Assembly (NCBI GenBank): GCA_963822445.1
Contig: CAWGHO010000002.1
Location: 480,001-544,000, forward strand
DNA from: an uncultured Acidobacteriota bacterium
Lineage (GTDB): Bacteria > Acidobacteriota > Thermoanaerobaculia > Gp7-AA8
Reading direction: 5' to 3'
DNA length: 64,000 nt
The translations under genes and the position numbers were made by a program. Below, in pieces: positions 1 to 17,735 of this stretch; position 1 is the first letter of the stretch, and every line of letters starts with the position of its first letter. Below the pieces are notes generated by a model. It ran no database searches, was not told where the DNA came from, and worked only from the letters and a program-made list of their open reading frames with translations.

Positions 1-75
1 CCGGCGCGGGTGTAGGCGGTTCGGCCGCCAGGCGCGGCAAACGGCCTACTGCCAAGCCTCTGGCAGTAGTTAGCG
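1..75 (-). repeat. Partial variant attC-like site, truncated by the window edge
   Basis: Ends in CTGGCAGTA-GTTAGCG (+), the same terminal motif as the three full 198-bp repeats. The interior sequence differs. Confidence 0.65.
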
Positions 76-389
76 CGGGGCTCGCTTGGACCCCACGCAC
101 TTCTTTCAAAAGTTCTCGGTTGCAACACGACGCCGACACCACGTGCCTTTGTGGTAGCGCCGATGAACAAGCGGCCACGGCATGATGAGCCGCGGCGTTG
201 AAACAAGAGGCTGGAAGTAGCCTAAGGGCGCGTCCGCAGGACTCCTCAAGGCGATGGCGCTTCAACAGGTGGTTCCTCTACGACACCCTTGGCAGGTCGA
301 CGTAGAAATCAGTGTTCTCGGTGTGACCTGGTAAGAGTCAGCTCAACACGTGGCGCCGCCGAAGTATCATGAGTTAGGAGGCACGCCCG

Positions 390-845
390 ATGCCCGATCC
401 TACCGAAACGCCAATCGTAACGTTGGCTAGGAAATACTTCGATGAGCATAGCCTGCAGTTTCGAGCCGTTTGGGAGCTTTATCTTTCGTTCTATGTTGCG
501 TTTATCACTTTGAACGGAGCCGCGCTCGGCTTGACTGTTCAGTACGTGAAGGCGCCTCGAGCGAAAGGCATCATCGCGATCACCTTCATCCTGCAGAATG
601 CGCTGGCGGCTGGAACTGCAATAATGATCAGTCGTTACTCGGACCTGGCGGCACGTCGGACACAGGAACTCGGAGAGTTAACAATGGGTGACGTTGGAGC
701 GGATGCGCCGAGCCTCCCGCCCGCACTTCGTGAGTCCCCCATACCGGGCCATATCGGCCGTTGGGGTGGCATCGCAAATCTCCTTGGCCACATTCTGTTC
801 GCGATCCTTTGGTCCGTCGTCGGACTCATCGACATCCACGTTTAG
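390..845 (+). CDS. Hypothetical membrane protein (cassette gene)
   Basis: 151-aa ORF with AGGAGG RBS and about 3 hydrophobic segments. It lies between matching cores GTTAGCGCG (69) and CGGGCTAAC (932-940). Confidence 0.7.
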   Translation: MPDPTETPIVTLARKYFDEHSLQFRAVWELYLSFYVAFITLNGAALGLTVQYVKAPRAKGIIAITFILQNALAAGTAIMISRYSDLAARRTQELGELTMGDVGADAPSLPPALRESPIPGHIGRWGGIANLLGHILFAILWSVVGLIDIHV

Positions 846-933
846 TATCAGTCGTGCATCGCCACGAGAAACGCCTACCGCAGACATGTTCTCGGCTTCT
901 GACCCGTGCGATTCGCGGTGATTGACTGCGTCG

Positions 934-1131
934 GGCTAACGTCTATCGCCTGAGCTGCGCGGCCAGGGCCCGCGTGCCGAAGCCGGAGCGGCGCGGCGGT
1001 TGCCGCGAGCAACGTGCGAAGCACCGCGCCGCGAACTGCAACCGCCGTGACGCCGTCACGCTGGCGAAAAAGCAGCCGGCTCGGCCGGCGGGCCGGAGCC
1101 GGGCCGCGACAGCTCCTGGCAGTAGTTAGGC
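934..1131 (-). repeat. attC-like recombination site, 198 bp (copy 1)
   Basis: GGCTAAC...GTTAGGC cores bound an imperfect palindrome (GAGCTG-CGCGGCC / GGCCGCG-A-CAGCTC). Near-identical to 13684-13881. Confidence 0.85.
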
Positions 1132-1193
1132 GCCGGTTTATCAACGTCCGATGGCATAATGCCATCGTTGACGTGGTGCGCCAAGGGAGGACG

Positions 1194-1841
1194 ATGTCCG
1201 GCAAGACCTCAGCACTTGAGATCGCAAGGCTTTCATACAAGCAAGGCATAGCGGTGGCTCTGATCAGCGCCTTTGCTGGGGTTGCGACTACCGTGATCAG
1301 CAAAGAGATTGCAGAGCGCCGGGCCGCTGATGCGCGGCCGACAGCGACCGCTGGAAGTGCGGCGAACCAGGATAGTCGCACTCCCGAGTTACAGAAAGTG
1401 GTTGACAACACCCGTACACCGCCGAGCGAGGCAGATCAACGCGAAAGCGCGACGGCGTTAGCCTCAGCAAATGAAGCGCTTAGACGCTTGAAACAGCAAT
1501 TGGACAAGGCGAGTTCATTGTCCGTTTCTCTGACCAAGGAGCGAGACGAACTGCAGGCTGAACTAGAGGCCGGTCCAGATTTCGGATGGCGGAGTCTGAC
1601 AACGGAATCGAGTGGGGAGAAATGCGTCGCCAGAGTCATTACGTCAATGAAAGCAGCTGGCGTAACAGTTGCGCACCGCGACGGTATGTACGTGCATGGT
1701 CGCAAGGGCGCAGTAGCGGTCTCGATGGAATGTCCGATAGACGAAACGGGCGAAGCTTTGCTGTTTACTGCGTGCCGCGACATCTCAAACTGTGATGAGT
1801 TGGCCGATCAGATAGAAGTAGAGTTCACATCGAGCCACTGA
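1194..1841 (+). CDS. Hypothetical protein with N-terminal TM segment, coiled coil and Cys-containing C-terminal domain (cassette gene)
   Basis: ATG at 1194 follows a GGGAGG RBS. Bounded by the exact complementary cores GTTAGGCGC (1125) and GCGCCTAAC (1854-1862). Confidence 0.75.
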   Translation: MSGKTSALEIARLSYKQGIAVALISAFAGVATTVISKEIAERRAADARPTATAGSAANQDSRTPELQKVVDNTRTPPSEADQRESATALASANEALRRLKQQLDKASSLSVSLTKERDELQAELEAGPDFGWRSLTTESSGEKCVARVITSMKAAGVTVAHRDGMYVHGRKGAVAVSMECPIDETGEALLFTACRDISNCDELADQIEVEFTSSH

Positions 1842-1855
1842 CCGTGACGTCGTGC

Positions 1856-1874
1856 GCCTAACTTACATTTCGAC
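1856..1874 (-). other. attI-like simple site heading array A
   Basis: Minus strand reads GTCGAAA-TGTAA-GTTAGGC (L-like box, 5-bp spacer, R box). No attC hairpin follows the core. Confidence 0.5.
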
Positions 1875-2309
1875 CGACTCCACGTGTCCATAATTTCTAC
1901 ATACGCGCACCCTTGCGACGCCGTGCCTTGCAAGCGCTAGCCGTTCGTAAACAGGCGCGCCTCTCGGCTTTCCGCGAGCTAGCAACTACGAGCGCGGAGC
2001 GGAGCATCCGTTCGAGAAGAAGGCGTACGGCGTCAATACCAACGCAGCGACGTTACCGTAGCTGACACCATACGGGCGAGCGCCTGCGGACGCTTGACGC
2101 GGGATCGGGACTGCAGGAAGTGGGGCCGCTGCACGGCGCGGGTGTGATCACCGGCATCGCCGAAAGCGAAATCACATTCGTCGACTTGAACACGAATGAA
2201 GTGAACTCGACCATTTGTCAGCAGCCGGGAGAGAGGCAACCTCGACCTGGAGCGCCGCCGTCCGCCGGCGGCTGTACCGCAGGCGTCCGGCGACGCACTT
2301 GCAGGTTCG

Positions 2310-2762
2310 ATGTCCATGAGAATCCTCGTCGCCGTCGATCACTCCCCGCATTCCCTTGCCGCCGTGGAGACAGTCATGGCGCGCCCCTGGCCCGAATCGA
2401 CGAAAGTCCGTCTGCTGACCGTCAACGCGCCTCCCTACGTGGCGTTTGCGCCGTGGGTGGAGCTGCAGGCAACGATGGCGGACTTCGATGCCGAGGTGAA
2501 AAAGCAGGCCGAGGAGCTCGTGAGCACGATGGCGGCGCGAGTTCGGGAGAAGGCTCTCGACGTCGAGGTCGTGATTCGAGACGGTGACCCGCGTACGGAG
2601 ATCGTCGATGAAGCGATCAAGTGGGACAGCGATCTGATCGTGATCGGCTCACACGGCTATACCGGCATCAAGCGGCTTCTTCTCGGCAGCGTCGCGCAAT
2701 ACGTAGTGGCTCACGCGCCCTGCTCGGTGGAAGTCGTGCGGCGTCCTGCAGGAAACGCGTGA
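2310..2762 (+). CDS. Universal stress protein (UspA family)
   Basis: ILVAVDHS N-terminus and GDP...DLIVIGSHG...LLGSVAQYVVAHAPCSVEVVR C-terminal signature. Confidence 0.95.
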   Translation: MSMRILVAVDHSPHSLAAVETVMARPWPESTKVRLLTVNAPPYVAFAPWVELQATMADFDAEVKKQAEELVSTMAARVREKALDVEVVIRDGDPRTEIVDEAIKWDSDLIVIGSHGYTGIKRLLLGSVAQYVVAHAPCSVEVVRRPAGNA

Positions 2763-2778
2763 GCTGCAGCCCACCCCC

Positions 2779-4525
2779 CTAAACCATTTCCTTGACCTTG
2801 TCGGCGAGCAGAGTCAGCGCGATCTCCTTGCGGTTCGGCTCCCCCTTCGCCAACGACTCCGCCAGATGCAGGGCCTGCTTGGCGGTGATCTTCGACGGCA
2901 TTGGCGGCTCGACCGGATCGACGATCGCTTCGATCACGACCGGACCCGGCATGCGCAGGGCCTCGTCGAGCATCGAGCCGCAGAGCAGCGGATCGTCGAT
3001 GGTCATCGCCGCGGCGCCGCATGCGCGCGCGAATGCGGCGAAGTCGATCGGGTGCAGCTCGCAGCCGTACTCGGGATTGCCGAGGAAGACCATCTGCTCC
3101 CACTTGATCATCCCCAGGGTGTTGTTCTTGATGACGATGACCTTGATCGGCAGGCCGTACTTGACCGCGGTCGCCAGCTCGCCCATGAGCATCGTGAAGC
3201 GCCGTCGCCGACGAACGCGACGCATTGACGATCCGGATACGCGACCTGCGCGGCGATGGCGTACGGCAACCCGTTGGCCATCGAGGCCAGCGTTCCCGAA
3301 AGCGAGAACATCTGCCCCTTGCGCGCTTTGATCTGCCGGGCGAACCAGGTCGCGATCGTTCCTGAATCGCTCGACACGATGGCGTCGTCCGCGAGCCGCT
3401 TGCCGAGCTCCCACGCCACCACCTGCGGTTTCATCGGCTTGTCGGTGCGCGTTCCGCGCGTCTCCATCAGCTCCCACCACTCGCGCATCCCCGCTTGCGC
3501 TTTCTCCAGAAACGCGCGGTCTTCCCGTTGCGCGAGCAGCGGAACGAGCTTCTCCAAAGTCCGTTTGCTGTCTCCCGCCAAACCGACTTCGATGGGATGA
3601 CGCAGTCCGATGCGCACCGGGTCGACGTCGATCTGAACCGCGCGCGCCTGGCCGGGCTTGGGCAGGAACTCGATGTACGGAAACGAGGTGCCGACCATGA
3701 GCAGCGTGTCGCATTCCTCCAACGCTTCTTGAGAAGGCCGGGTGCCGAGGAGGCCGATGCCGCCGGTGGTGTACGGACTGTCGTCGGGAACGGCGGCCTT
3801 GCCGAGCAGCGGCTTCACGATCGGTGCGGCCATGCGCGCCGCGGCCTCTTCGAGCAGATCGCCCGCGCCCAGCGCGCCGCGGCCGGCCAGGATGACCGTC
3901 TTGTTTCCCTCGTTCAGAAGATCGGCGGCGCGGCGGATATCGTCATCGCACGGAACGTGAGCGCCGAACGCGAGGACCTCCGACGTGTGATTGGGGATGT
4001 TCCGCTCCGACCCTTTTCGACCTTGATCGATTGCAGGTCGACGGGAAAGTTGATGTGGGCGACGCTGCGGCGGGAGATCGCCATCCGGCAGGCCAGCGTG
4101 GTCACGTTTTCGACGTGCGCCGGACCCATGATGCGCTGGCTGTACACGGCCACGTCGGCGAACACACGATCGAGATCGACGTCCTGCTGCGCGAACGTTC
4201 CGATGAGGTCGTGGTAGTGATGGCCGGTGATGGCCAGCACCGGCTGTCCATCGAGCTTCGCGTCGTAAAGACCGTTCAGCAGATGGAGTCCGCCTGGACC
4301 TGATGTGGCCACGCAGACACCGAGCTTGCCCGTGTACTTGGCGTACGCGCAGGCCATGAACGCCGCCGACTCTTCATGACGAACCTGGATGAATCGGATC
4401 GTGTCGGCGCGCTGGCGGAGCGATTCCATGATTCCGTTGATGCCGTCGCCGGGCAGGCCGAACACCACGTCGACGCCCCACGACTGCAGCGTGTCCACCA
4501 GAACATCGGAAGCGGTTTTGGCCAT
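2779..4525 (-). CDS. poxB: Pyruvate oxidase/dehydrogenase (PoxB-like, TPP-dependent), split by two frameshifts near 4012 and 3200
   Basis: FGLPGDGING, VRHEESAAFMA, GPGGLHLLNGLYDAKLD and the GDG...NN TPP motif are spread over three consecutive frames. Confidence 0.85.
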
Positions 4526-4534
4526 GACCGATGA

Positions 4535-5017
4535 CTACCGCGCAGGGCCGCTGAGAGAGCTCGGCGCATCGAGGTGTGCACCATCGTCGACGCCCACTGA
4601 GAGCCGGCCCACGAGCTCACCGCCGAGCCATCCGGTGATCGTGGCCAGCCCCGCGCCGAGTGCGCCGAGGAGGATGGCCAGGGTTGCGGGGTTGGCGGGA
4701 TGCTCGCGGCGCAGGAACCAGCTCGCGGCAAACAGCACGACCACGATGACGTTTCCGATGCCGTGCAGACGGCCGATGCGTTTCGCGCGCGTGCCGTCGG
4801 GGATCTTCAGATAGTCGATCAATCCGAAGACCGCGGCGATGAGGCCGGCCGCGACACCGGCCGCGATCATGTAGTACGACGCGCTGAAGAGGCCCTGATG
4901 GCGATCGAGAAACAGAGCGATCACGTCGAAGAACAGCGCCATCGCCAGAACGCCCAGGGGAAACACGATCAACATCTGATGAATGGGATGCCCGAACAGC
5001 TTTGCCCTTGCTTCCAT
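4535..5017 (-). CDS. DUF2231-type membrane protein
   Basis: GHPIHQMLIVFP...HGIGN...GWLGGELV motifs. GGAGG RBS before the ATG at 5017. Confidence 0.85.
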   Translation of the reverse strand: MEARAKLFGHPIHQMLIVFPLGVLAMALFFDVIALFLDRHQGLFSASYYMIAAGVAAGLIAAVFGLIDYLKIPDGTRAKRIGRLHGIGNVIVVVLFAASWFLRREHPANPATLAILLGALGAGLATITGWLGGELVGRLSVGVDDGAHLDAPSSLSGPAR

Positions 5018-5089
5018 GGCTCCTCCTCCGTCGCGCAGCAGCCGTGCAAGAGCGGCTCCCATTTCCCCACGCAACCGTTGGAAAACTGA

Positions 5090-5860
5090 TCAGGAAGTTT
5101 TCGGCGGCTCGCGCTCGAAACGGACCTTCTCGTTCTTCCGCGAGGCCGTTGCCGCTCGCACGTGAAACTCGCATCGACCGTCGCCGTCCTGAAACCGCCG
5201 CTCGCGCACGACCTCGCAACCGGTCAACCGCCGCAGCGTGCTGACCGTCGTGCTGCAGATGTCCGGCCGCTCCATGGCTACATTCAGATACGGACAATTC
5301 CGCTCGGTGAGCACGAAGTCGTCGCCACGCCGCTCAACCTCGGTGAACGGATCGCCGGCCATGTAGATCGCCCGAAGCTGCTCCATCTTTTTCTCGAGCG
5401 GCAGTGCAGCGAGATGGGGCTCGAGCCAGCCGACCCGCGCATCGGTCAATCGTGTCAACGCGGCGGCCAGCGACGCATCGCCTTCGACGGCAATCGTGTC
5501 GAGCAGGCCGATCGTCAGTGAGGCGTACTGCTTCGGGAAGAGGTGATCGCCTGCAGCGGTGAGGCAGTACATCGCCGGCGGTCTGCCCGGCGCCGGCTCG
5601 CCGCGTTCGGAGAGATCGGGCTCGCAGTTCGATTTGATCCATCCGCCTTTGTGCAGATCGCCAACCTGCTTGCGCGCCGCCTCATGACTCATCCCCAGCG
5701 CCTCGGCGATTCGAGGGATGGACACGAAGCCTTCGAGCTTCAGCAGACGGAGGATGTTCGCGCGCGTGACAGAAAGCTCATCGAGAACATCGCGGGACGC
5801 CACGGGTGCGAGCTGCTTCAGAAACCATGCCCTGGGAAGCAGCCCCATCCAATTTCCCAA
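5090..5860 (-). CDS. ArsR/SufR-like HTH transcriptional regulator
   Basis: N-terminal wHTH, then GRP..YCLT..G..LFP..Y and ERNCPY...IC...RC cysteines. Confidence 0.8.
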   Translation of the reverse strand: MGNWMGLLPRAWFLKQLAPVASRDVLDELSVTRANILRLLKLEGFVSIPRIAEALGMSHEAARKQVGDLHKGGWIKSNCEPDLSERGEPAPGRPPAMYCLTAAGDHLFPKQYASLTIGLLDTIAVEGDASLAAALTRLTDARVGWLEPHLAALPLEKKMEQLRAIYMAGDPFTEVERRGDDFVLTERNCPYLNVAMERPDICSTTVSTLRRLTGCEVVRERRFQDGDGRCEFHVRAATASRKNEKVRFEREPPKTS

Positions 5861-5917
5861 CTTGCCGGTTGGGAATTGTGAACGCGATTTGCACCACCGA
5901 TGTCAGGAGGTGCTGAC

Positions 5918-7269
5918 ATGGTTCGTACGGAGAGAGCGCGGGCGGGCCTCGCGCTCGGCCTCATTTTCGTGCTTTCGGCATGCGTCGGAATGCCGACGTA
6001 TGCACCACAAAATCCGGCAGTCAAGAACGAGATGCACAGCGGCCGGTATCGCGACGCCGTGGCCGACTACTCGGAGAAACTGTTCAACGAAGGACGGCAG
6101 ATCTTCCGCCACGACACGTTCGGGAGCGAGGCGTTCTGGAGCGGCAAGCTTCGCCTGCACGAGGCCATCGCCGGCGAGCGATTCGGAGGCGTGGGTCACG
6201 GCTCGAGCCGAAGGACGCGCTGAAGCTCGGTCTCAAAGTCGACACGGGCGTCCTCCCGAAAATCCTCGGCGAAGCAGTCAAGGGCGGCGGCGTCGATCTC
6301 GGCGACGTCAAGACGACCATGGAGCTGCTCAAGGCCGATGCAGTCGTCGGCGTTGCCGCGAAGTTCGACGGCGACAAGCTCGTCTCGGTCGGCATCACCT
6401 GCGCGCTCTGCCACTCGACCGTCGACGACTCGATCATGAAGGGCGCCGGCAATCGTCTCGACGGATGGCCGAATCGCGATCTCGACGTCGGCGCGATCGT
6501 GGCCTTAGCCCCCGACCTCAGTCCCTACCAGGATCTCCTCGGCGTCGATCGCGCGGCGGTCGAGCGCGTTCTGAAGAGCTGGGGACCGGGCAAGTACGAC
6601 GCGGAGCTGAACCAGGACGGCAAGGGCTTCCGGCCCGATGGGAAATCCGCCGCCACTGTCCTGCCGGCCGCGTTCGGACTGGCCGGTGTGCATCTGCACA
6701 CGTACACGGGCTGGGGATCAGTCACGTACTGGAACGCGTATGTCGCCACGACACAGATGCAGGGCGTGGGGACGTTCTTCGATCCGCGGATCAAGACATC
6801 AGGGAAGTTCCCCATCGGCGTGAAGGGCGGGTTCGACAACATCCGCCGCACACCCGATCGCGTGACGGAAAAGCTCGCGCCGCTGCACTACTACCAGCTG
6901 TCACTGCCGGCGCCGTCGCCAAAGAGCGACTCTTATGACAACGCGGCCGCCAAACGCGGCGAGGCGATCTTCAATGGGAAGGCGAACTGCGCTCGCTGCC
7001 ACGTACCGCCGCTGTTCACCGAACCGGGATGGGCGATGCACACACCGGAGGAGATCGGCATCGACGATTTCCAGGCGAAGCGCTCGCCGGACGGGATGTA
7101 TCGCACGACGCCGCTGCGCGGTCTGTTCGTTCGCGAAAAGGGCGGGTTCTATCACGATGGCCGCTTCCCCACGTATGGCGCGGTCGTCGATCACTACGAC
7201 GGTCACCTCAGACTCGGACTGACCGCGGCTGAGAAAAATGACCTCATCGAATTTCTGAAGTCGCTGTAA
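5918..7269 (+). CDS. Diheme c-type cytochrome (cytochrome c peroxidase-like) lipoprotein, frameshift near 6202
   Basis: LSAC lipobox, two CXXCH motifs (CALCH, CARCH), YRTTPLRG and FYHDGRF. Confidence 0.8.
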
Positions 7270-7288
7270 ACCGATAGGAGAGACTCCA

Positions 7289-7945
7289 ATGCGCAGCACA
7301 ATATCCATCCTCGTCATTTGCACGTTTTTGTTGTCCGGGTGTGCGTCGCAGCCTTACGGCACAACGTCAGATCACTCGTCAATGCACGCAGGAATGCCGG
7401 CCGATGACAGCCGCACCGCACTGTCGAAGGCAATGCGCGATCTCTGGGCGGATCACGTCATCTGGACGCGCAACTACATCATCGCGGCCGCATCGGATCA
7501 GCCGGATGCGCAGGTAGCAGCGAACCGCCTGCTCGCGAACCAGGACCAGATCGGACAGGCCATCGTTCCTTATTACGGGCAGGAGGCCGGAACGAAGCTC
7601 GCCGGTCTGCTCAGAGACCACATCCTGATCGCGGTCGATCTCGTCGCGGCCGCGAAAGCGAACGATCAGACCAAGCTCGGAGATGCCGACCGGCGCTGGA
7701 AGGCCAATGCCGCCGACATCGCGACATTCCTGAGCGGCGCGAATCCGAACTGGCCGCGTGAGGCCGTGCTCAACATGATGAACGAGCACCTCGCCTTGAC
7801 CACCCAGGAAGCAACCGCGCGGCTACAGAAGAACTGGAGCGAGGACACGGCAACGTTCGACAAGATCTTCGATCAGGCCATGATGATGGCCGACGCATTG
7901 ACGGACGGGATCATCAAGCAGTTTCCGGATCGCTTTCGCGGGTGA
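7289..7945 (+). CDS. Conserved helical lipoprotein of unknown function
   Basis: LSGC lipobox, GGAG RBS, and a His-containing helical domain (LWADHVIWTR, LLRDHI, MMNEHL). Confidence 0.8.
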   Translation: MRSTISILVICTFLLSGCASQPYGTTSDHSSMHAGMPADDSRTALSKAMRDLWADHVIWTRNYIIAAASDQPDAQVAANRLLANQDQIGQAIVPYYGQEAGTKLAGLLRDHILIAVDLVAAAKANDQTKLGDADRRWKANAADIATFLSGANPNWPREAVLNMMNEHLALTTQEATARLQKNWSEDTATFDKIFDQAMMMADALTDGIIKQFPDRFRG

Positions 7946-8011
7946 CTTACACACACGCCGGTGACATCCGACCCTTCGTCGGCATGAAGGGTCGGATAAG
8001 CTCCACCGCGC

Positions 8012-8464
8012 GTGAAGTCTCTGCTCCTCATCGGAACCGCCGTCCTCCTCGGAATCGCGGGGGGCGTCGGTTTCTTCACGTTCGGCTACGCACGCGGCGC
8101 GTCGTATCTCACCAACGATCCCGCCGCGTGCGCGAACTGCCACGTGATGCAGAGCCACTACGACGACTGGCGGCATTCGAGTCACCGCTCGGTCGCTACG
8201 TGCAATGACTGCCACACGCCGCCCGGCCTGATTCCCAAGTACGCGACGAAGGCCTCGAACGGGTTCTGGCATTCGTTCGCGTTCACGACCGGCCGCTTTC
8301 CCGAGCCGCTGCGGATCAAGCCGCACAATCGCGAGATCGCCGAGAAGGCCTGCCGCAAATGTCACGCGGCGATCGTTCAGGCGATCGATCCCGTTCCCCG
8401 GCATGACCCGGCCGATGCGACGTCCTGCATCCGCTGCCACTCCAACGTCGGACACATGAGGTAA
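8012..8464 (+). CDS. nrfH: Cytochrome c nitrite reductase small subunit
   Basis: N-terminal TM helix, four CXXCH motifs with the first as CANCHVM, immediately upstream of nrfA. Confidence 0.93.
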   Translation: MKSLLLIGTAVLLGIAGGVGFFTFGYARGASYLTNDPAACANCHVMQSHYDDWRHSSHRSVATCNDCHTPPGLIPKYATKASNGFWHSFAFTTGRFPEPLRIKPHNREIAEKACRKCHAAIVQAIDPVPRHDPADATSCIRCHSNVGHMR

Positions 8465-8468
8465 GCAA

Positions 8469-9860
8469 ATGGCCAAGGACACTCTCGATCCCGAGCGCAG
8501 CAAGCGCCGCCGCCGCTTCTGGATTCTTCTGAGCGCGATCGTCGCCGGCGTCGCGGTCATCACCGCCGGCCTGACCGCGCTGCTCGTCGACATTTTCGAG
8601 CACAAGCAGGAGGCCCGGAATCCGTTCTACCGAGTGTCCGAGCTCACCGACGAGACTGTCGATCCCGCGAAGTGGGGAGAGAACTTCCCGCTGCAATACG
8701 ACGGGTACAAGCGGACCGTCGATCAGGTGCGCACGCGCTATGGCGGCAGCGAGGCTGTTCCTCGAACGCCGACGTCGGCCGACCCGCGTTCGATGGTCGC
8801 GCAGTCGCGGCTCGAGGAGGACCCGCGGCTGAAGACGATGTGGGCAGGCTACGCGTTCTCGGTCGATTTCCGCGAGGAGCGCGGCCACGCCTACATGCTT
8901 CAGGATCAGGAGTTCACGGAGCGGCAGCATTTCGCAAAGCAACCCGGCACCTGCCTCCACTGCCACGCGTCGGTCTACGTTCCCTACAAGCGCGCCGGCG
9001 GCGGCGATCTGATCAAAGGCTTCGAGAAGCTGAATCAGATGACTTACTTCGAAGCCCGGAAGCAGGTCAGCCATCCGGTGGCCTGCATCGATTGCCATGA
9101 TCCGAAAACGATGCAGCTTCGCATCACCCGTCCGGGCTTCCTCGAGGGAATCCGCGTCGCCAAGGCCGCGGCAGGCATCGCCGATTACGACGTGAACAAG
9201 ATGGCCACGCGGCAGGAGATGCGCTCGTTCGTCTGCGGGCAATGCCACGTCGAGTACTACTTCAAAGGTCCGGAGAAACGCCTCACCTATCCCTGGTTCA
9301 AGGGCCTCAAAGCCGACGAGATCCTCAGCTATTACGAAGAAGTGAAGTTCAAGGACTGGACGCACGAGATCAGTGGAGCGCCGGTCCTGAAAGCGCAGCA
9401 CCCGGAGTTCGAGATGTGGAACCAGGGCATTCACGCGCGCTCGGGCGTGGCCTGCGCCGACTGCCACATGCCCTACGAGCGCGTAGGCGCGATGAAGATC
9501 AGCAGCCATCACGTGCGCAGCCCTGTGCTCAATCTCAACAACGCCTGCCAGACCTGCCACAAGTGGCCGGAGGAAGAGCTGAAGTCCCGCATCGAGATCA
9601 TCCAGACGCGCACGCACGAAATGCGCGGCATCGCCATGGACGCGCTGATCGCCCTGATCAAAGACATCGAACAAGCCCGGACCGCCGGCGCGACCGACGC
9701 CCAACTCGAGAAGCCGCGCAATTTCCAGCGACGCGCGCAGTTCCTCCTCGACTTCATCGAAGCGGAGAACTCGATGGGCTTCCACGCGCCGCAGGAAACG
9801 GCGCGGATTCTCTTGCAGTCAGTGGACAACTCGCGCAAAGGACAGGAGGCACTGCGGTGA
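8469..9860 (+). CDS. nrfA: Ammonia-forming cytochrome c nitrite reductase, catalytic subunit (CXXCH first-heme variant)
   Basis: Five heme motifs (CLHCH, CIDCH, CGQCH, CADCH, CQTCH) plus RGHAY, HVEYYF, KAQHPEFE and ENSMGFHAP. Confidence 0.95.
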   Translation: MAKDTLDPERSKRRRRFWILLSAIVAGVAVITAGLTALLVDIFEHKQEARNPFYRVSELTDETVDPAKWGENFPLQYDGYKRTVDQVRTRYGGSEAVPRTPTSADPRSMVAQSRLEEDPRLKTMWAGYAFSVDFREERGHAYMLQDQEFTERQHFAKQPGTCLHCHASVYVPYKRAGGGDLIKGFEKLNQMTYFEARKQVSHPVACIDCHDPKTMQLRITRPGFLEGIRVAKAAAGIADYDVNKMATRQEMRSFVCGQCHVEYYFKGPEKRLTYPWFKGLKADEILSYYEEVKFKDWTHEISGAPVLKAQHPEFEMWNQGIHARSGVACADCHMPYERVGAMKISSHHVRSPVLNLNNACQTCHKWPEEELKSRIEIIQTRTHEMRGIAMDALIALIKDIEQARTAGATDAQLEKPRNFQRRAQFLLDFIEAENSMGFHAPQETARILLQSVDNSRKGQEALR

Positions 9861-9893
9861 CACGTGGCCGGGAGTCTGCTCCGCGTGCCGGTC

Positions 9894-10150
9894 ATGAACA
9901 GCAAGCTGGAACGCTTTCATGACCTGGTGAAAGACATCGAAGTGGCCATGATGACCACTCAGCGTGGCGACGGTCTGCTGGTTTCGCGACCAATGGCCAC
10001 GCAGGTTTTCGCCGAAGGTGCCGATCTCTGGTTCGTGACGACGAAGGGCAGTCCCAAGTTATCGGAGATCGCGCAGAGCTCCGGCATCAACCTCTCCTAC
10101 TACAAAGACCGGACGCGGGAGTGGATCTCAGTTTCCGGCGACGCCCGCGA
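9894..10150 (+). pseudogene. Truncated general stress protein 26 / pyridoxamine-5'-phosphate oxidase-like protein
   Basis: AMMTT...SRPMATQ...LWFVT...WISVSGDA. Similarity stops at about 85 aa and the frame runs into a convergent gene. Confidence 0.7.
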
Positions 10151-10275
10151 ACCAGGCCCTCCAGTCGGGACGGTAGAGCTCGTGAATCTTCGCGCGATCC
10201 TCCACGACGCGGCAAGAGTCCCGAATTCCCCGACGCGCAGACCATTACGGGCGATTTCCAACGCGAACGTTGATC

Positions 10276-10824
10276 CTAAGCACCGTCTCGTGGGCGGTTC
10301 CTGCCTTTTCGCCAGGCAACCGAACCGATCGACACGAAGCATGCAAAAGAAAACAAAATCACAAAACCGGCGGCAAACCATCGAGTTGGGTCGGTAAAAA
10401 GCTTCCACAACCCAACGCCTGTGAAGAACGCAGAGATCAGCGCAAGGCACGCGACCCAGAGCCAGCCCAACGCTCTTGCCTGCGCTTCCGTCGCATCGCT
10501 CCATTTCATGTTCGATACGGCGGGTGGAAGGCCACGCACTCGCCTCCGGACGCGAAACTCGAACCAGAGGGCATACAGGAGCAGAAGCACAATCGCCGCA
10601 AACACAGCGGCCTGGATGCTTTGGCGACGGGCGACCACTAATGAAATGACGGTGAAGACAAGCACTACGACATAGGACACCTTTAGATCACGCCGCAGAT
10701 CCGACTCGAACGTCGGGTCGGGCAGAACGTAGCCTCGCCCCAAAACGCCGTACGGATAAAAGGCCGTCGAACCATCCGGTTGACGCTTGAAGGAAGGGTC
10801 GGTCAGGGCATCGAGATAGCTCAT
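10276..10824 (-). CDS. Hypothetical membrane protein
   Basis: 182-aa ORF, GGAG RBS, four hydrophobic segments. Confidence 0.7.
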   Translation of the reverse strand: MSYLDALTDPSFKRQPDGSTAFYPYGVLGRGYVLPDPTFESDLRRDLKVSYVVVLVFTVISLVVARRQSIQAAVFAAIVLLLLYALWFEFRVRRRVRGLPPAVSNMKWSDATEAQARALGWLWVACLALISAFFTGVGLWKLFTDPTRWFAAGFVILFSFACFVSIGSVAWRKGRNRPRDGA

Positions 10825-10848
10825 CCCAACTCCAGGTTCGCGCCGGCG

Positions 10849-11499
10849 TCAGGATGCTGGCTTGTTTCGGTGCCAACGGCCTGCAAACGGCAGATCCCAC
10901 AGACTTCTGAGCGGAATGTTCAGGTACGAGCACGTGTCCCGGAGGAGTGGCCAGCCAAAGCCGAACACAATCGACCAGTACACGACGTCGAATAGTAATC
11001 TCAGCACCGCTGCAATGAGGGCAGCGCTGAAGAACGACCATGAGCTCGTGTCCAGGTCGGCCAGCCGGTCCCGGAAAGCGAACAGCCCGACATTTGTGGC
11101 GATTCCGGTGACGGCCCTCACCGCAGCTGGAACGACGTTCCATAGCCGCAGCGTGAGCTCCAGCACAACGAAACGAACAATCAGAAGCAGGACCCGCTGG
11201 CCCTCCACTACCGGAGACGCCAACGTTTGCAACGTCACCTCTCCTGCGGTCGCAGCCCGAACCTCGGCATGCTTCTGCTGAATTTCGAGCTCGAGCTTCC
11301 GCGATTCCAGCGTGGTCTTTCGGAGGATGTTGAACGTAAGGATGAGCCCAAGCAGCGCCGCCGGTATCGCGAGGACACCTGTTGCCACCTTGTACCAGAC
11401 CTCTCCCGCCTTCGCGTTCGCCGCTGCCCCGTCCTGAGCGATCGCGTCACTTGCGAAGATGCAGATGACCACCGCGCACGTCAAAACCGTCCGTCGCAC
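10849..11499 (-). CDS. Hypothetical membrane protein with signal peptide
   Basis: GTG start after GGAGG, AIA-Q cleavage site, several TM segments. Confidence 0.7.
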   Translation of the reverse strand: MRRTVLTCAVVICIFASDAIAQDGAAANAKAGEVWYKVATGVLAIPAALLGLILTFNILRKTTLESRKLELEIQQKHAEVRAATAGEVTLQTLASPVVEGQRVLLLIVRFVVLELTLRLWNVVPAAVRAVTGIATNVGLFAFRDRLADLDTSSWSFFSAALIAAVLRLLFDVVYWSIVFGFGWPLLRDTCSYLNIPLRSLWDLPFAGRWHRNKPAS

Positions 11500-11583
11500 C
11501 GTGAGACCTCCATTGCTGATGTGCTCGGAATTGTACGCGGATCGGCCTGAGGGCTTCAGCGTCACGACGTAGCCAGGGTCTCG

Positions 11584-12081
11584 CTACTGAATCTTCTTGT
11601 CTTCCCGTTTGGCGTCTTCCATGGCCTCAGGCTCGAGCTCTTCCGCCGCTCGATTCAGCCTGATGAATACGCCCCAGGCCGCCAATAATGCCGCCGTTGC
11701 CAACCCGATTGAAGACGCGCTCCACAGCATCCGCGGGTCTCCTTCGAGGAAGCGCACGACGGCAACGAGATATTTGATCGACAGTGCAACCACAACCACG
11801 ACGAGGAAACGCGAAAGGTAGCGGCGTACGCGCGTCGGGGCGCTGACTTGCGAGCGACGGACGACTTCCTCCTCCATCACCGTCTGCGCAATCTCGAGAG
11901 CAACAAGGGCGATCGCAAGAATCCCGATGCTCTCGATGACCTGGGATACGTGTGTTGGCGAGTGGGCCACAGCCTCCCAAAGCGTCACGACAGCGCGGAC
12001 GACGAGCACCACGGCTGCCGCGCCGAAGAAGAAGGCGATGGCCGAGTAGATCAACGTGAACACGCGCATGATCCAGGTCAT
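11584..12081 (-). CDS. Four-TM membrane protein (PsiE-like)
   Basis: IESIG...ALEIAQTVMEEEV...RR.LSRFLVVVVVALSI pattern. Confidence 0.7.
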   Translation of the reverse strand: MTWIMRVFTLIYSAIAFFFGAAAVVLVVRAVVTLWEAVAHSPTHVSQVIESIGILAIALVALEIAQTVMEEEVVRRSQVSAPTRVRRYLSRFLVVVVVALSIKYLVAVVRFLEGDPRMLWSASSIGLATAALLAAWGVFIRLNRAAEELEPEAMEDAKREDKKIQ

Positions 12082-12099
12082 GACTCCGTTATACATCAG

Positions 12100-12304
12100 G
12101 AGTTAGAAGCCGGGCGCGTCAGCGGCGAGCGGCCCGCCCACGGGTGCTGGCGATTTGGGCGGGCCACGCTCACAAGCGATGGAATAGCACGACACAACTT
12201 CGTGTACACCGGCCCAAGTCGAAGAGTACGTGCCCCGCCCCCGAGAAGTGAATGAAGACCTCGCGCGAGCAATCGTGCGCAAGGTATGCAAGGACCGAAC
12301 ATGA
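12100..12304 (+). pseudogene. hicA: Degenerate HicA toxin
   Basis: HicA-like fragments in different frames (AHGCW; EYVPRPREVNEDLARAIVRK*). The stop overlaps the hicB ATG (ATGA). No intact start, and the left boundary is approximate. Confidence 0.55.
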
Positions 12305-12714
12305 GATTTGAGGGCAGAGTAGTGCGTGATGGCCGGTGGTGGCTGGCTGAGATTCCGCTTCTCGATGCAAGAACTCAAGGCCATACACGACGCGAGGCCT
12401 TTGAAATGATCAAGGACTGGGTGGAGACAGCGATCAATCGCCCCGAGTTTTGCGCGACCGTACACCCGCAAGGACGCAAGGAGTTTGAACTCGAAGGGTC
12501 TGATGCTGCTGCAATGATTGCGCTTCTCTTGCGTCGGCGGCGCGAGGCAAGCGGCGCATCCCTGCGAGATATGGCGACGCGACTCGGCTTGAACTCTCGC
12601 AATTCGTACGCTCGTTACGAACGTGGCGAAGCTGTGCCGACTGTTGAGAAGCTCGACGCGCTGCTCCGAGCTACCTCGCCGGGCGGGGATTTCGTTATCC
12701 GAGAGATTCGGTAA
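12301..12714 (+). CDS. hicB: HicB-family antitoxin with C-terminal XRE HTH
   Basis: WWLAEIPLLDARTQGHTRREAFEMIKD HicB fold followed by the HTH SLRDMATRLG..YARYERG..P. Confidence 0.8.
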   Translation: MRFEGRVVRDGRWWLAEIPLLDARTQGHTRREAFEMIKDWVETAINRPEFCATVHPQGRKEFELEGSDAAAMIALLLRRRREASGASLRDMATRLGLNSRNSYARYERGEAVPTVEKLDALLRATSPGGDFVIREIR

Positions 12715-12846
12715 GCAGCGTGTCAGCGGTACGGGCGTCTCCGTGATTCCCTTCAGGTTGGCGACACGGCAGTCACTCCGAGTAGGAAGTCCGCCGCGAG
12801 GCAATCTCGCCGATGGCTTTCGACACGCACCGCGCGATCTCGGTCT

Positions 12847-13044
12847 GCCTAACGTCTATCGCCTAAGCTGCACGGCCAGGGCCCGCGTGCCGAAGCCACA
12901 GCGGCGCACCGGTTGCCGCGAATGACGTTCGAAGAACCGAGTCGCGATATGCAACCGGCGTGACGCCGCCCCGCTGGCGATGCTGTACGCGGCTCGGCCG
13001 CCGGACCGGGGCCGGGCCGTGCCAGCTTCTGGCAGTAGTTGGGC
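12847..13044 (-). repeat. attC-like recombination site, 198 bp (copy 2, divergent)
   Basis: GCCTAAC...GTTGGGC. Same length as copies 1 and 3, with compensatory stem changes. Confidence 0.85.
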
Positions 13045-13049
13045 AGCGG

Positions 13050-13280
13050 TTACTTAACTGCGAGTTCGTGCAGCAACTGCTCGATGTTTTCTGGTACGGA
13101 GACGGGCACGAACCACGAACGAGGGTACAGATAATCTTCCCCCGATTCGTCGATTACGCGCACATAGTTTCGCTGGGCAGCACTGGAATCTTCGAGTACT
13201 TCGTAGACCTTGCGCAGGTGAAGCGTGCCAGCGTATTCGCCGTTCTGAATGCAGATTGCGAAGTGCGTCGTTTGACTCAT
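13050..13280 (-). CDS. Small conserved protein, putative antitoxin/immunity (cassette gene)
   Basis: 76 aa with RVIDESGEDYLYP. ATGA-coupled to the upstream gene, stop 5 bp before the attC core. Confidence 0.8.
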   Translation of the reverse strand: MSQTTHFAICIQNGEYAGTLHLRKVYEVLEDSSAAQRNYVRVIDESGEDYLYPRSWFVPVSVPENIEQLLHELAVK

Positions 13281-13531
13281 CGGACTTGATCGAAAAAGCG
13301 CTTGATCTTCACCCATCGCTTACCGATGCCGTCGGCTTCGTACCAGTGGATCTCAGCTTCGTGCATCGTACCATCCTCGAGCCGAACGATTGCGAGGCCT
13401 TTCAGCTTTCGCCAGTCACCGAGACCGAAGTGTTCTTCCAGATACACCAAGTCGCGGATTCCCTCGCCGCTGGCGATCGTTTCGGCTCGGCGAATCGGCC
13501 CAACGATTTCGAACGACTCCCACACATCCAC
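13277..13531 (-). CDS. Small conserved protein, putative toxin (cassette gene)
   Basis: 84 aa with WRKLKG and AEIHWYEADGIG motifs. Confidence 0.8.
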   Translation of the reverse strand: MDVWESFEIVGPIRRAETIASGEGIRDLVYLEEHFGLGDWRKLKGLAIVRLEDGTMHEAEIHWYEADGIGKRWVKIKRFFDQVR

Positions 13532-13683
13532 GAAGCCAAGGCTAGCACACGCCTCATGACGTGAGTTGATAAGCGCCGCTCACGGAGACATTATGCGTCC
13601 CATGCATCGATGAGTCGCAGTCTAGATCTTCTTGCTGGCACGGGGAAAAGCTGGCCTCCAGCCGTTACACGAGGCTTACGTCT

Positions 13684-13881
13684 GCCCAACGTCTATCGCC
13701 TGAGCTGCGCGGCCAGGGCCCGCGTGCCGAAGCCGGAGCGGCGTGGCGGTTGCCGCGAGCAACGTGCAAAGCACCGCGCCGCGAACTGCAACCGCCGTGA
13801 CGCCGTCAAGCTGGCGAAAAAGCAGCCGGCTCGGCCGGCGGACCGAAGCCGGGCCGCGACAGCTCCTGGCAGTAGTTAGCC
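13684..13881 (-). repeat. attC-like recombination site, 198 bp (copy 3)
   Basis: GCCCAAC...GTTAGCC. The TAA stop of the preceding minus-strand gene lies inside the core. Confidence 0.88.
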
Positions 13882-14775
13882 GGCACGGAGCCGTACGCGA
13901 ACGAGAATGTTGCGTTCCACGCGCTGATGCGCAAGCCACGCGAATATTTGCTGAACCGGTGAACGAGGCGCAGGTGAGCGAAGATATACCCTTAGTCGAT
14001 AGACGCCAGGAGCAAGACTATTGGTATCGAACCAAGTTACGTAAGTTCCCGCTTCTTCAGTGTGAAATTTCGCAGGAGCGGATCTCCATGTCGATCGGGG
14101 CGCTACTTGAATGAACTGCGCGCTGAGATGATCGTGGTTTGTGATTCTGCCCGACAAATGCGCACGCACTTCAAGGGAGTCTGGGCCGCTGACCATCGTG
14201 GCAGAAGGCGTAACGTCAAACTTGTACAGAGAATGCACGTAAGTGTGGCCAACGGCCGTCATGGCGACAAAGATCATGACGCTTCGTTGCCATCCAAAGT
14301 AGTTCGTCGGGTCAAAGTGCGCCGAGATCTGCCAGAGCTGGTTCGGAAGAAAGCGTCGAAAAAGTATGAGCAGTACGACAGCCGCGACCGTGCCGGTGAT
14401 GCCGCCGCCGATATTTCCCATCCTGGGGATGAGGTACAGCACAGATGTAACGCCAACCAGAAAGGGAGCAGTCCACAGCAGGAGCCATCTGACCAGGAAC
14501 CAAAGTGCCAGATCTTGCATGAACATGGCGAATCCGGGCCAAAACCCCTCGTCGATGCCACTGGCGGTCGAAACCAGGCGGCCCGTCGCCGCCAACGCGA
14601 GGGCCAAGGCTATCGTTGAAAGGAAGATGACAAGTACAGATAGCACGTGCGCGGTAAAGACGAGTTCGGAACCCGGACTCACGATGCGCGTCAACGCCGC
14701 ACCGGCCGCAAAGGCAAGTGCCGCCACGGTGCCGGAGAGTGAGGCCAGCGTTCCTGCCTCGAGTTGTCGGTTCAT
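13876..14775 (-). CDS. Hypothetical multi-TM protein with C-terminal beta-rich domain (cassette gene)
   Basis: 299 aa. Bounded by the exact complementary cores GTTAGCCGG (13875) and CCGGCTAAC (14816-14824). Confidence 0.75.
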   Translation of the reverse strand: MNRQLEAGTLASLSGTVAALAFAAGAALTRIVSPGSELVFTAHVLSVLVIFLSTIALALALAATGRLVSTASGIDEGFWPGFAMFMQDLALWFLVRWLLLWTAPFLVGVTSVLYLIPRMGNIGGGITGTVAAVVLLILFRRFLPNQLWQISAHFDPTNYFGWQRSVMIFVAMTAVGHTYVHSLYKFDVTPSATMVSGPDSLEVRAHLSGRITNHDHLSAQFIQVAPRSTWRSAPAKFHTEEAGTYVTWFDTNSLAPGVYRLRVYLRSPAPRSPVQQIFAWLAHQRVERNILVRVRLRAG

Positions 14776-14817
14776 GTCCCGAGCATAACAAGAGACCGCC
14801 CGATCACGTGGGTGTCC

Positions 14818-14836
14818 GGCTAACTAATATTTACAC
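14818..14836 (-). other. attI-like simple site heading array B
   Basis: Minus strand reads GTGTAAA-TATTA-GTTAGCC, the same geometry as 1856-1874. Confidence 0.5.
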
Positions 14837-14887: not shown

Positions 14888-14923
14888 CAAAACAAAAAGG
14901 CGGAGCCTCGCGGCTCCGCCTTT
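14888..14923 (-). terminator. Rho-independent terminator of the M6 protease gene
   Basis: AAAGGCGGAGCC-GCGA-GGCTCCGCCTTT hairpin followed by a T-rich tail on the minus strand. Confidence 0.85.
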
Positions 14924-17460: not shown

Positions 17461-17735
17461 ACGAGATCCTCCTGGTAAGTGTTGAGACAGCAGACCTTTA
17501 AGGCCGCGGCTGCGCCACGGCATGAACCGACTGCGAGGGTGAAGCGCCACCGCCTTGCCGCTACTGCGGTACAGCTCTCTCTGGTGCTGGAACTGATGTT
17601 TTTGGAAGGCCGCGAGAGTACGGGCGACCGCCTGACTTTGTCAACAGCTCGATCTTTTCTTGTGAGGGAACCGTCAAAAACTGGCACCGGGCGGACACAA
17701 TTCCACCTGTGAGGGAATCCTTACGGATGGCGGAT

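Follow-up and report, generated by a model that had tools for sequence, protein, structure and literature searches.

We found that two small cassette arrays, arrays D and E, in a 64,000-nt stretch of the genome of an uncultured Acidobacteriota bacterium (the window) appear to be headed by orphan attI-type sites, which probably originated as complete attI sites of former integron platforms and not as chance secondary sites, a reading that we hold with moderate confidence. It is based on the architecture of the heads, the boundaries of the cassettes, the specificity of the match and its recurrence in the genome and the genus. Judged from these sequences, some integrase-less arrays in this bacterium start at attI-type, not random secondary, sites.

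The simple site of a class 1 attI consists of an L box, a spacer and an R box, GTTRRRY, as in attI1 (CCCTAAA-ACAAA-GTTRRRY). Both window heads showed this core architecture and a crossover at G|TT. The head of array D (site 1; 1856..1874, minus strand) was read directly from 1874 to 1856 as GTCGAAATGTAA-G|TTAGGC, in which the attI-type left half GTCGAAATGTAA occupies 1874 to 1863, the crossover G lies at 1862, and TTAGGC, from 1861 to 1856, comes from the first cassette. The head of array E (site 2; 14818..14836, minus strand) was read directly from 14836 to 14818 as GTGTAAATATTA-G|TTAGCC, with the attI-type left half GTGTAAATATTA from 14836 to 14825, the crossover G at 14824 and TTAGCC, from 14823 to 14818, contributed by the first cassette. 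Both heads carry an L box (GSCKAA) that repeats the R box imperfectly in inverted orientation, and a 6-nt AT-rich spacer follows it. The first-pass annotation had described the two heads as sharing a consensus, as AT-rich within a GC-rich window and as joining the first cassette of each array to DNA other than attC, and all of this held: the left halves were identical at 8 of 12 positions, contained 8 and 10 A/T in 12 nt in a window of ~60% GC, and each first cassette was joined at G|TT to AT-rich non-attC DNA. It is extremely unlikely that the likeness is a coincidence without meaning. Agreement of two AT-rich 12-mers at 8 of 12 positions is weak alone, and the first-pass annotation compared two sites, but the independent weight-matrix ranks, the number of exact pattern matches and the blinded test given below counter such a reading.

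The genome contains one intact intI (C2:2118092-2119054), which matched TIGR02249 with 456 bits against a cut-off of 265 and had no stops; its closest named relatives were in MAGs labelled Thermoanaerobaculia or Acidobacteria. This gene lies on the same contig as both window heads, ~1.6 Mb apart from them, and no match to TIGR02249 at E ≤ 0.001 was found in the window. Neither head is therefore adjacent to intI, as an attI would be, the only intI being 1.62-1.64 Mb off, and any present activity at the heads must be in trans. About 89 cassettes follow the main attI junction, GTCGAAATAGAAG|TTAGGCCGAC (which reads GTCGAAATAGAAG|TTAGGC), whose distance downstream from the intI match is 350 nt. Site 1 was identical to this attI at 17 of 19 bases and was its sole match in the genome at two or fewer mismatches, and the pattern GGTCGAAATNNAAGTT occurred exactly twice in the 6-Mb genome, once in each of these two sites. 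Site 2 differed from the main attI at five positions, which is the noise level (127 genome matches), so the support for site 2 comes from the genus consensus.

For that comparison, a position weight matrix was derived from 12 intI-adjacent attI left halves of relatives, with the target genome excluded; in 3 of the 12 sites a choice was made among several candidates. Of 132,399 GTT sites, the main attI scored highest, and site 2, head B, site 1 and head F took ranks 14, 24, 26 and 33; the window left halves thus lay within the top 0.02% when scored with a matrix from other genomes. When the matrix was restricted to the nine single-candidate loci, the ranks were still in the top 0.07%, and without the unpublished genome G032 they were still in the top 0.3%, with site 2 at rank 13. 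In an AT-matched control of 2,474 GTT sites, both window sites were among the top 11, site 2 being 6th. The comparison with the attI beside the cognate intI, which the first-pass annotation had proposed, thus showed that the window junctions resemble both the cognate attI and the genus-wide attI consensus. Its suggestion that the sites are more specific than GWT-type attG sites was borne out by the attI-matrix ranks and by the resemblance in L box and spacer; neither head consisted of the minimal GWT-type motif alone, devoid of attI resemblance.

We examined whether other arrays of the genome start in the same way by a test that was blind to the left halves and took in the non-main attC clusters with a cassette-start candidate (n = 11), taking for heads B and H the better of two nearby candidates. 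Six of the 11 heads were attI-like at p ≤ 1.5e-3. The likeness was graded, being strong in heads D, E, B and F, weaker in H and K and marginal in M, and four of the 11 heads were not attI-like; beyond the window, three or four more attI-like CALIN heads are present in the same genome. The junction logo of CALIN heads across the genome accordingly contained more than GTT, and the first-pass annotation's adverse case, a logo of GTT alone, did not arise. In this genome most of the well-preserved CALINs are headed by an attI-type core, as are many across the genus.

Each window array contains two attC sites and has no intI nearby, which is the make-up of a CALIN. Those of array D are at 935-1131 and 1-75, the second extending past the left edge of the window, and those of array E are at 13684-13881 and 12847-13044. 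The orientation of the arrays was read from the main integron, whose attC sites, reading away from intI and attI, have the form RYCTAAC-TACTGCCAG...GGCGATAGAC-GTTRGSC. As a control, R'' in the main array complemented its own 5' start better than that of the next cassette in 55 of 67 cases, with 2 cases of the reverse and 10 ties. The attC sites of both window arrays ran in the same direction as those of the main integron, on the minus strand, in agreement with the minus orientation first proposed. We also considered arrays running on the plus strand, where both ORFs of array D lie, in which case the claimed sites would hold a truncated attC; the orientation of the main integron and the R''/R' covariation test led us to reject this.

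Cassette D1 (940..1861, minus strand) runs from TT at 1861-1860 through G at 940. Its attC matched the attC profile in nhmmer at E = 1.3e-40, with a hairpin fold of z = -3.4, and its R'' region was complementary to its own 5' start at 9 of 10 positions, as compared by eye. Cassette D2 (1..939, minus strand) holds a short attC, with R'' CGCTAAC at 75 to 69, that reaches C2:479968 and whose R' is mutated at the crossover (CTT). Both cassettes carry a plus-strand ORF, antisense to the array (1194-1841 in D1; 390-845 in D2), neither of which matched Pfam. Cassette E1 (13690..14823, minus strand) contains an ORF of 299 aa (13876-14775, minus strand) that is sense to the array, has its stop codon in R'' and had no Pfam match; its attC matched at E = 5.5e-41, and R'' was complementary to the start of its own cassette at 9 of 10 positions. 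Cassette E2 (12853..13689, minus strand) has an attC that matched at E = 6.9e-40, with the same 9 of 10 agreement between R'' and its own start. Since the R'' boxes of D1 and E1 pair with the right half of the respective junction, at 9 of 10 positions each, the first cassettes are complete.

Taken together, both sites are the left halves of genuine attI-type core sites, fused at the canonical G|TT to a complete cassette. Such a junction is what IntI would be expected to produce by recombining a folded attC with a double-stranded attI-type site, and it was probably IntI that made the two junctions. That the heads are instead remnants of attC sites with the interior deleted and R'' (GCCTAAC-like) left near R', a case raised in the first-pass annotation, is very unlikely and can, on sequence grounds, be regarded as largely refuted. 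The L box does resemble R'' (GSCTAA), and the main attI spacer ATAGA equals the ATAGA that precedes R' in attC sites. These remnants do not fit the heads, however: of 86 attC R' arms, 85 had C at position -1, where the heads have A; the L box was followed by A or G, where R'' would have its C and then TACT; and nhmmer with the attC profile gave no match at the heads. Furthermore, the attI sites beside intact intI genes in relatives, directly downstream of them, had the same L box and spacer architecture as the window heads.

The distal ends of the arrays bear on what the empty sites were. The distal junction of array E (12843..12853, minus strand) reads G|TTAGGCAGAC, and this 10-mer had a single other occurrence in the genome, in the distal junction of array D (C2:479973, just left of the window); the two distal right halves shared TTAGGCAGAC-S-GAG, which the rest of the genome lacks. 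Every examined CALIN distal end with an intact R' resembled a cassette start or an R box at 8-11 of 11 positions, which points to complete attI sites as the ancestral empty state. A cassette-free, complete orphan attI of this kind would have read L box + GTTAGGCAGAC, and the source platforms would have been former or duplicated integrons that lost intI.

It is unlikely that the heads are ordinary chromosomal DNA that by chance resembles an attI core, into which cassettes were inserted de novo by an IntI whose sequence preference is stronger than the GWT rule of IntI1-3. Each insertion at such a site regenerates a hybrid site, so small arrays could grow from it, and insertion at secondary sites has been established experimentally (bioRxiv 10.1101/2022.09.11.507474). 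The absence of flanking homology beyond the core and the graded likeness among the heads, from D, E, B and F through H and K to M, are in line with this reading. So is the location of both window heads, which are intergenic and in regions that differ between species. In addition, the score of the weakest ranked head was reached by 33 GTT sites, of which 5 are the main attI and four heads and the other 28 are unoccupied, so the genome does hold a reserve of such sites. Pseudo-attI sites, however, predict that the last attC is followed by TT and unrelated DNA, whereas the distal ends are R-box-like and those of D and E share a 10-mer of their own. Moreover, a perfect 14-position match like that of site 1 is expected only ~0.05 times per genome (12 Mb / 4^14, with uniform base composition assumed), and the orphan heads of relatives are clearly paralogous copies.

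We investigated the DNA upstream of the heads. The first-pass annotation had placed a usp gene region beside site 1 and a protease terminator beside site 2, and both were confirmed: a Usp gene (PF00582, E = 1.8e-32) is located at 2310..2762 on the plus strand, and an M6 (InhA-like) metallopeptidase gene (PF05547, E = 7.4e-80) at 14947..17550 on the minus strand, with a terminator-like hairpin at 14897..14909 (minus strand), ~60 nt upstream of head E. The peptidase gene showed about 80% DNA identity in four relatives, which kept the hairpin; the DNA beyond it was not conserved. Between head D and the Usp gene we found a pseudogene fragment, X' (2013..2230, plus strand), with 83% DNA identity to the 3' part of a 560-aa gene (gene X; C2:477127-478809) that sits across array D from it, which marks an old rearrangement or deletion beside this head. 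Unrelated features are thus only ~60 nt (site 2) and ~138 nt (site 1) from the heads. No upstream homology longer than ~14 nt between the window heads and the main attI region, the other heads or the attI regions of relatives rose above shuffles or noise, and neither an intI fragment nor homology to the intI-attI spacer was found upstream of either window head. By these comparisons site 1 is excluded as a recent copy of the main attI. Both negatives, like the antisense direction of both ORFs in array D, count against the reading preferred here, and descent from a complete attI is no more than probable for this genome.

Such heads were also examined in relatives. Of 23 heads, in 20 loci, 14 had a downstream attC and no IntI match in the fetched flank, 5 were beside intI fragments, and 4 had neither. 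Paralogous heads within G031, and likewise within G035, shared 100-280 nt of upstream homology. The first-pass annotation's other adverse case, that the sites are remnants of deleted intI regions, consequently stays a live alternative. A genus-wide search with a pattern from the attI of the target genome returned mostly coding-sequence noise.

We also looked for empty or variant alleles. In four relatives, the peptidase flank of head E had a different neighbour beyond the terminator in each, with no attC, and in eight relatives the TPP-enzyme flank of head D had neither the Usp gene nor any common neighbour; G008 carried an ortholog of gene X in a rearranged context. The empty alleles that the first-pass annotation had hoped for in relatives were not found, and no empty site could be defined. 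Exact 28-nt probes, each spanning a left half together with its flank, had 0 matches in two scans of metagenome contigs. Among sequencing runs, one rhizosphere study had a 0.10 share of window words, and only short contigs fitted the window; two 151-nt contigs were identical to the window and both fell inside cassette E1 (14105-14255, 14581-14731), and none from this study bridged either head.

The heads might be dead fossils of the same origin, integrons that lost intI, in which the heads are no longer used and the likeness is residual and decaying. The mutated R' of attC D2, the tiny arrays of two attC each, the truncated pseudogene beside head D, the decay series of intI in relatives and the failure to detect polymorphism at either head in metagenome contigs and sequencing runs all suit that account. 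We consider it distinctly unlikely: an intact IntI is present, and the core sites were kept while their surroundings diverged beyond recognition, a pattern more expected under selection for function. The attC sites argue against it as well. Those of D1, E1 and the eighth cassette of the main array were mutually 95.6-96.1% identical (95.6% both between E1 and D1 and between E1 and the main-array attC), and no other attC reached 93%, which is consistent with cassettes having moved recently at the proximal ends of the three arrays. On the reading that we prefer, orphan attI sites of former platforms, the heads may still be used for cassette insertion. The proposal of the first-pass annotation that cassettes are loaded at multiple landing sites, as a distributed integron, was upheld as to attI-type specificity, but not as to current loading; the searches gave neither direct evidence of present activity nor an empty or alternative allele.

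A more far-reaching version, in which the ~27-bp attI core is a dispersed and possibly mobile module and one IntI serves at least seven attI sites over three contigs as a true distributed integron, is a tentative possibility on the improbable side. Arrays D and E would then be headed by sister copies, as the 8 of 12 left-half bases in common and the shared distal right-half sequence could indicate. The seeding of new attI copies elsewhere in the chromosome would require a mechanism outside the known IntI reactions, because exchange between attI and attC, or between attI and a secondary site, cannot move the attI left half.

Among known systems, the window arrays resemble CALINs in having two attC sites, no intI for many kb, cassettes without assigned function and a complete integron in the same genome. 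CALINs were defined without regard to their heads, with attI not searched beyond classes 1-3, and secondary-site insertion, intI loss and rearrangement are listed as their origins in that work (2016, PMC4889954); the window arrays differ in that their heads proved attI-type, a result with a bearing on those origins. As in the attG sites of SALINs, cassettes lie outside the integron and are joined to resident DNA at G|TT. According to Loot et al. (bioRxiv 10.1101/2022.09.11.507474), attG sites have no more than a GWT (or TGWT) consensus and are unlike attI in sequence and structure, whereas the window heads extend this by 12 nt of L box and spacer of the attI type, and their arrays have R-box-like distal ends. 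With class 1 attI the heads share an imperfect inverted L box, a short A-rich spacer, the R box GTTAGGC and the G|TT crossover; they differ in lying away from intI and in their lineage-specific sequence, and accessory direct repeats were not identified. Delta-attI-type cassettes are likewise attI copies away from the canonical place beside intI, but they are reported as recombination-proficient copies inside class 1 and class 2 arrays on mobile elements (Sci Rep 2026, PMC12901181), whereas the window sites stand at the start of separate arrays on the chromosome of an environmental bacterium. Xanthomonas CALINs occupy specific chromosomal loci away from intI, contrasted with the broad distribution of attG, and the available section of that study reports no attI-like head sequence for them (bioRxiv 10.1101/2025.06.18.660453).

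Integron biology has yet to settle how CALINs originate, and the sequences at CALIN heads are not examined in the accessible portions of the papers cited here. If the present pattern is general, an integron could be a system of one integrase and many attI sites, and CALINs could stay addressable for cassette insertion, beyond excision. The head sequence would then be a simple diagnostic of CALIN origin, distinguishing attI-type, attG-type and attC-bounded arrays. A clade-specific attI consensus is now given for this poorly studied group.

The assembly comprises 6.0 Mb in three contigs, C1 to C3, with the window at C2:480001-544000, and contains a single intact intI at C2:2118092-2119054 (+), which matched TIGR02249 with 456 bits (cut-off 265) over model positions 2-313 of 315 and without stops. 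By IntI similarity, the nearest named records were MAGs with the labels Thermoanaerobaculia (71% and 66%) or Acidobacteria (66%), so that the organism is probably an acidobacterium. The main array, co-oriented with intI, extends from C2:2119405 to ~C2:2226592 and comprises ~89 cassettes in ~107 kb. A search with the attC profile showed attC sites of unusual length, every one of the 65 paired sites spanning 180-209 nt; in the direction away from intI they read RYCTAAC-TACT-GCCAGRAGCTG ... CAGCTYAGGC-GATAGAC-GTTRGSC, with R' conserved out to +10 (GTTRGSCSGAC), and the one attC that was folded formed a long hairpin (z=-3.4). Among 67 main-array cassettes, the 7 nt before the AAC of R'' were best complemented by the 5' start of the same cassette in 55 and by that of the next cassette in 2, with a tie in 10, indicating that the cassette boundaries fall on the canonical G|TT and that the assumed array orientation is right. 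The complete integron (C2:2118092-2226592) has an 'inverted-intI' layout, in which attI follows the intI match at a distance of 350 nt, and the interior of its array contains a single inverted attC at C2:2205449-2205645.

The two arrays of the window, D and E, have the minus orientation given in the first-pass annotation, as their attC orientation is carried on the minus strand. Array D contains attC D1 (935-1131) and attC D2 (1-75, crossing the left window edge), whose crossover is mutated to CTT, and array E contains attC E1 (13684-13881) and attC E2 (12847-13044). The attC sites of the main array and attC D1, E1 and E2 have conserved internal modules and group into several subfamilies. By-eye comparison of R'' with the cassette's own 5' start found complementary positions at 9 of 10 in D1, E1 and E2 and at 8 of 10 in D2. 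The first cassettes of both arrays are thus complete units, so that the TTAGGC and TTAGCC at the array heads (the first-cassette junctions) arrived with the cassettes, and the left halves, the 12 nt before G|TT, are resident DNA; such junctions are what would be expected of an attI x attC-type exchange.

Read on the minus strand, site 1, the head of array D, is GTCGAAATGTAA-G|TTAGGC (1874 to 1856), and site 2, the head of array E, is GTGTAAATATTA-G|TTAGCC (14836 to 14818). Direct reading bore out what had been noticed of them: the left halves are identical at 8 of 12 positions and are AT-rich (8/12 in site 1, 10/12 in site 2) in a window of ~60% GC, and the neighbors are a Usp gene (2310-2762) beside head D and, beside head E, an M6 peptidase gene (14947-17550, -) with a terminator-like hairpin (14909-14897, -).

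We compared both sites with the attI beside the cognate intI, as the annotation had proposed. The first-cassette junction there, 350 nt past the end of the intI match, is GTCGAAATAGAAG|TTAGGCCGAC. Site 1 was identical to this main attI at 17 of 19 positions, and no other genomic site came within 2 mismatches; GGTCGAAATNNAAGTT occurs in exactly two copies in 6 Mb, in the main attI and site 1, and its one-mismatch variants occur at five further sites, all unoccupied. Site 2 differed from the 19-mer by 5 mismatches, which taken alone is noise level (127 matches).

Of 34 other genomes in the genus, 24 were found to contain intI, and in each of them we read the junction downstream of the gene. One family of the relatives' attI sites is G-S-C-K-A-W-R-T-A-N-N-A|GTTRGSC, in which the L box is an imperfect inverted repeat of the R box (GSCKAA vs GCCTAA), from which a 6-nt AT-rich spacer separates it. 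A weight matrix was built from 12 intI-adjacent left halves of relatives, with the present genome left out, and was scored on all 132,399 GTT sites of that genome. The main attI ranked 1, site 2 ranked 14 and site 1 ranked 26, and the heads of other CALINs (attC clusters without integrase) ranked 24 (B, C1:1225901), 33 (F, C3:161308) and ~192 (H, C3:1337129). Three of the 12 junctions had been chosen among several candidates; with the 9 single-candidate loci only, the ranks were 9 for the main attI, 95 for D, 54 for E, 14 for F, 15 for B and 93 for H. One of the 12 sites came from a genome flagged as unpublished (G032), and without it the ranks were 1, 23, 13, 72, 27 and 357 in the same order. 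Among the 2,474 GTT sites with at least 8 of 12 A/T upstream bases, site 1 was 11th and site 2 was 6th, indicating that the signal is not AT richness alone. Two unoccupied GTT sites, at C2:537074 (window 57074, -) and C1:95067 (+), ranked 4 and 5 of the 132,399; their right halves are not cassette-like, and C1:95067 lies 4.3 kb upstream of a CALIN at C1:99350 in equal orientation.

Outside the main array, the attC profile identified 18 attC clusters. Heads were sought upstream of the first attC as sequences agreeing with GTTRGSCSGAC at 10 or more of 11 positions, a search blind to the left half, and a candidate was found in 11 clusters and none in 7. For heads B and H the better of two nearby candidates was taken, and for head E the nearest of three, the other two being within the peptidase gene. 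Six of the 11 left halves were attI-like at p<=1.5e-3 (D, E, F, B, H and K, the last at C1:227161 with the triplet GCT instead of GTT), head M had p=0.019, and four were not attI-like (p>=0.18). Of these four junctions, the one at C3:1356405 is formed by the R'' end of an attC in inverted orientation, and the one at C2:313206 coincides with a partial attC match that points the opposite way. At C3:1356220-1357416, an opposite-orientation attC pair surrounds one cassette. Head B (C1:1225901-1225922) consists of the attI-like left half followed by G|TTATGCCGACGAACCGGAGA and G|TTAGCCAGAC, with a 21-nt 'micro-cassette' between the two cassette starts. The junction logo that the annotation had called for therefore contains much more than GTT, but it is uneven across heads. 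Secondary attG sites, described together with SALINs, are reported to have a GWT consensus and to be unlike attI (bioRxiv 10.1101/2022.09.11.507474), whereas the window heads are of attI type and more specific. The window arrays are CALINs, and their heads, by their sequence, are attI-type sites that recur in the genome and the genus.

When a cassette inserts at a random site, the last attC is expected to be followed by TT and unrelated DNA. At the distal junctions examined, 8-11 of 11 positions fit the cassette-start/R-box consensus, and the 10-mer TTAGGCAGAC has only two copies in the genome, one at the distal junction of array D and one at that of array E. The R-box-like ends and the common 10-mer argue against chance secondary sites; before any cassette arrived, the sites were probably complete attI sites, and D and E resemble sister copies. 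In this genome, the pattern of attI left half plus cassette start was matched 9 times and its reversed control twice. A recent copy of the main attI is argued against by the window heads having no homology of >~14 nt to the main attI upstream DNA, each other, other heads or the relatives' attI regions, and by the TIGR02249 search finding no intI fragments near them. To our knowledge, the known exchanges of IntI cannot move an attI left half, given the reaction geometry established for integrons.

In relatives, we examined 23 heads in 20 loci: 14 had attC downstream and no IntI-like match in the fetched flank (usually ~2 kb), 5 were directly downstream of intI fragments, and 4 had neither downstream attC nor intI fragments. 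Genomes G031 and G035 contain paralogous orphan heads with 100-280 nt of common upstream homology. Such paralogs and intI fragments indicate that attI regions are copied in the genus, with intI decaying beside them, a pattern that favors descent of the window heads from true attI sites. Many heads in the genus have a motif in common, CTACGCGGACCAGS, which is found 14 nt to the left of the L box. This motif may be an accessory IntI-binding repeat, as its CTACGCGGAC portion is similar by eye to the extended R box TTAGGCGGAC, in direct orientation. Two relatives have arrays with attI copies in tandem, namely L221 (G035:C75), with heads 1,949 nt apart, and L218 (G045:C4), with intI fragments before each of two heads.

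The window heads may be landing sites still in use, or they may be remnants of integrons whose intI was lost. Present use would fit the intact IntI, the core sites conserved beside flanks diverged beyond recognition, and the attC sites of D1, E1 and the 8th main-array cassette, which are 95.6-96.1% identical (all other attC <93%), as roughly contemporaneous proximal insertions in three arrays would leave them; however, the attC D2 crossover is mutated, arrays D and E are very small, and no polymorphism was found at either head. No empty alleles were found in the available species-level relatives, where the flanks are not syntenic; G024, a genome flagged as unpublished, entered these negative checks only. 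Two exact-probe scans of metagenome contigs gave 0 matches, and the one study with part of the region yielded short contigs only, none across a head. Of the distributed integron with specific landing sites that the annotation envisaged, the attI-type character, the specificity beyond attG and the recurrence are supported; present use is one of two candidate readings. Earlier reports cover CALINs and their proposed origins (PMC4889954), Xanthomonas CALINs at conserved loci, contrasted with attG breadth (10.1101/2025.06.18.660453), Delta-attI cassettes (PMC12901181) and a comment that genomes often contain attI-like sites (10.1101/2022.04.29.490043). In the titles and abstract openings searched, no mention was found of CALIN heads or of a match to cognate attI.

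Around array D, window 2013-2230 is a paralog fragment (83% DNA identity) of a 560-aa beta-propeller-like gene at C2:477127-478809, which places the array between this gene and a piece of the gene's copy. The ortholog in relative G008 has a rearranged context, with a long array of ~20-nt tandem-like repeats downstream (L041 ~9200-10000, G008:C154). A GC-rich, REP-like element of ~45 nt at 2246-2292 recurs many times in this genome and also in G013 and G014, two relatives. The TPP-dependent enzyme gene at 2779-4525 (-) is apparently split into three overlapping ORFs with TPP_C, TPP_M and TPP_N; possible causes are frameshifts, decay to a pseudogene or indels in the assembly. Between arrays D and E lies a cytochrome c552 (NrfA-type nitrite reductase) gene at 8469-9860 (+) (PF02335, E=7.7e-136).
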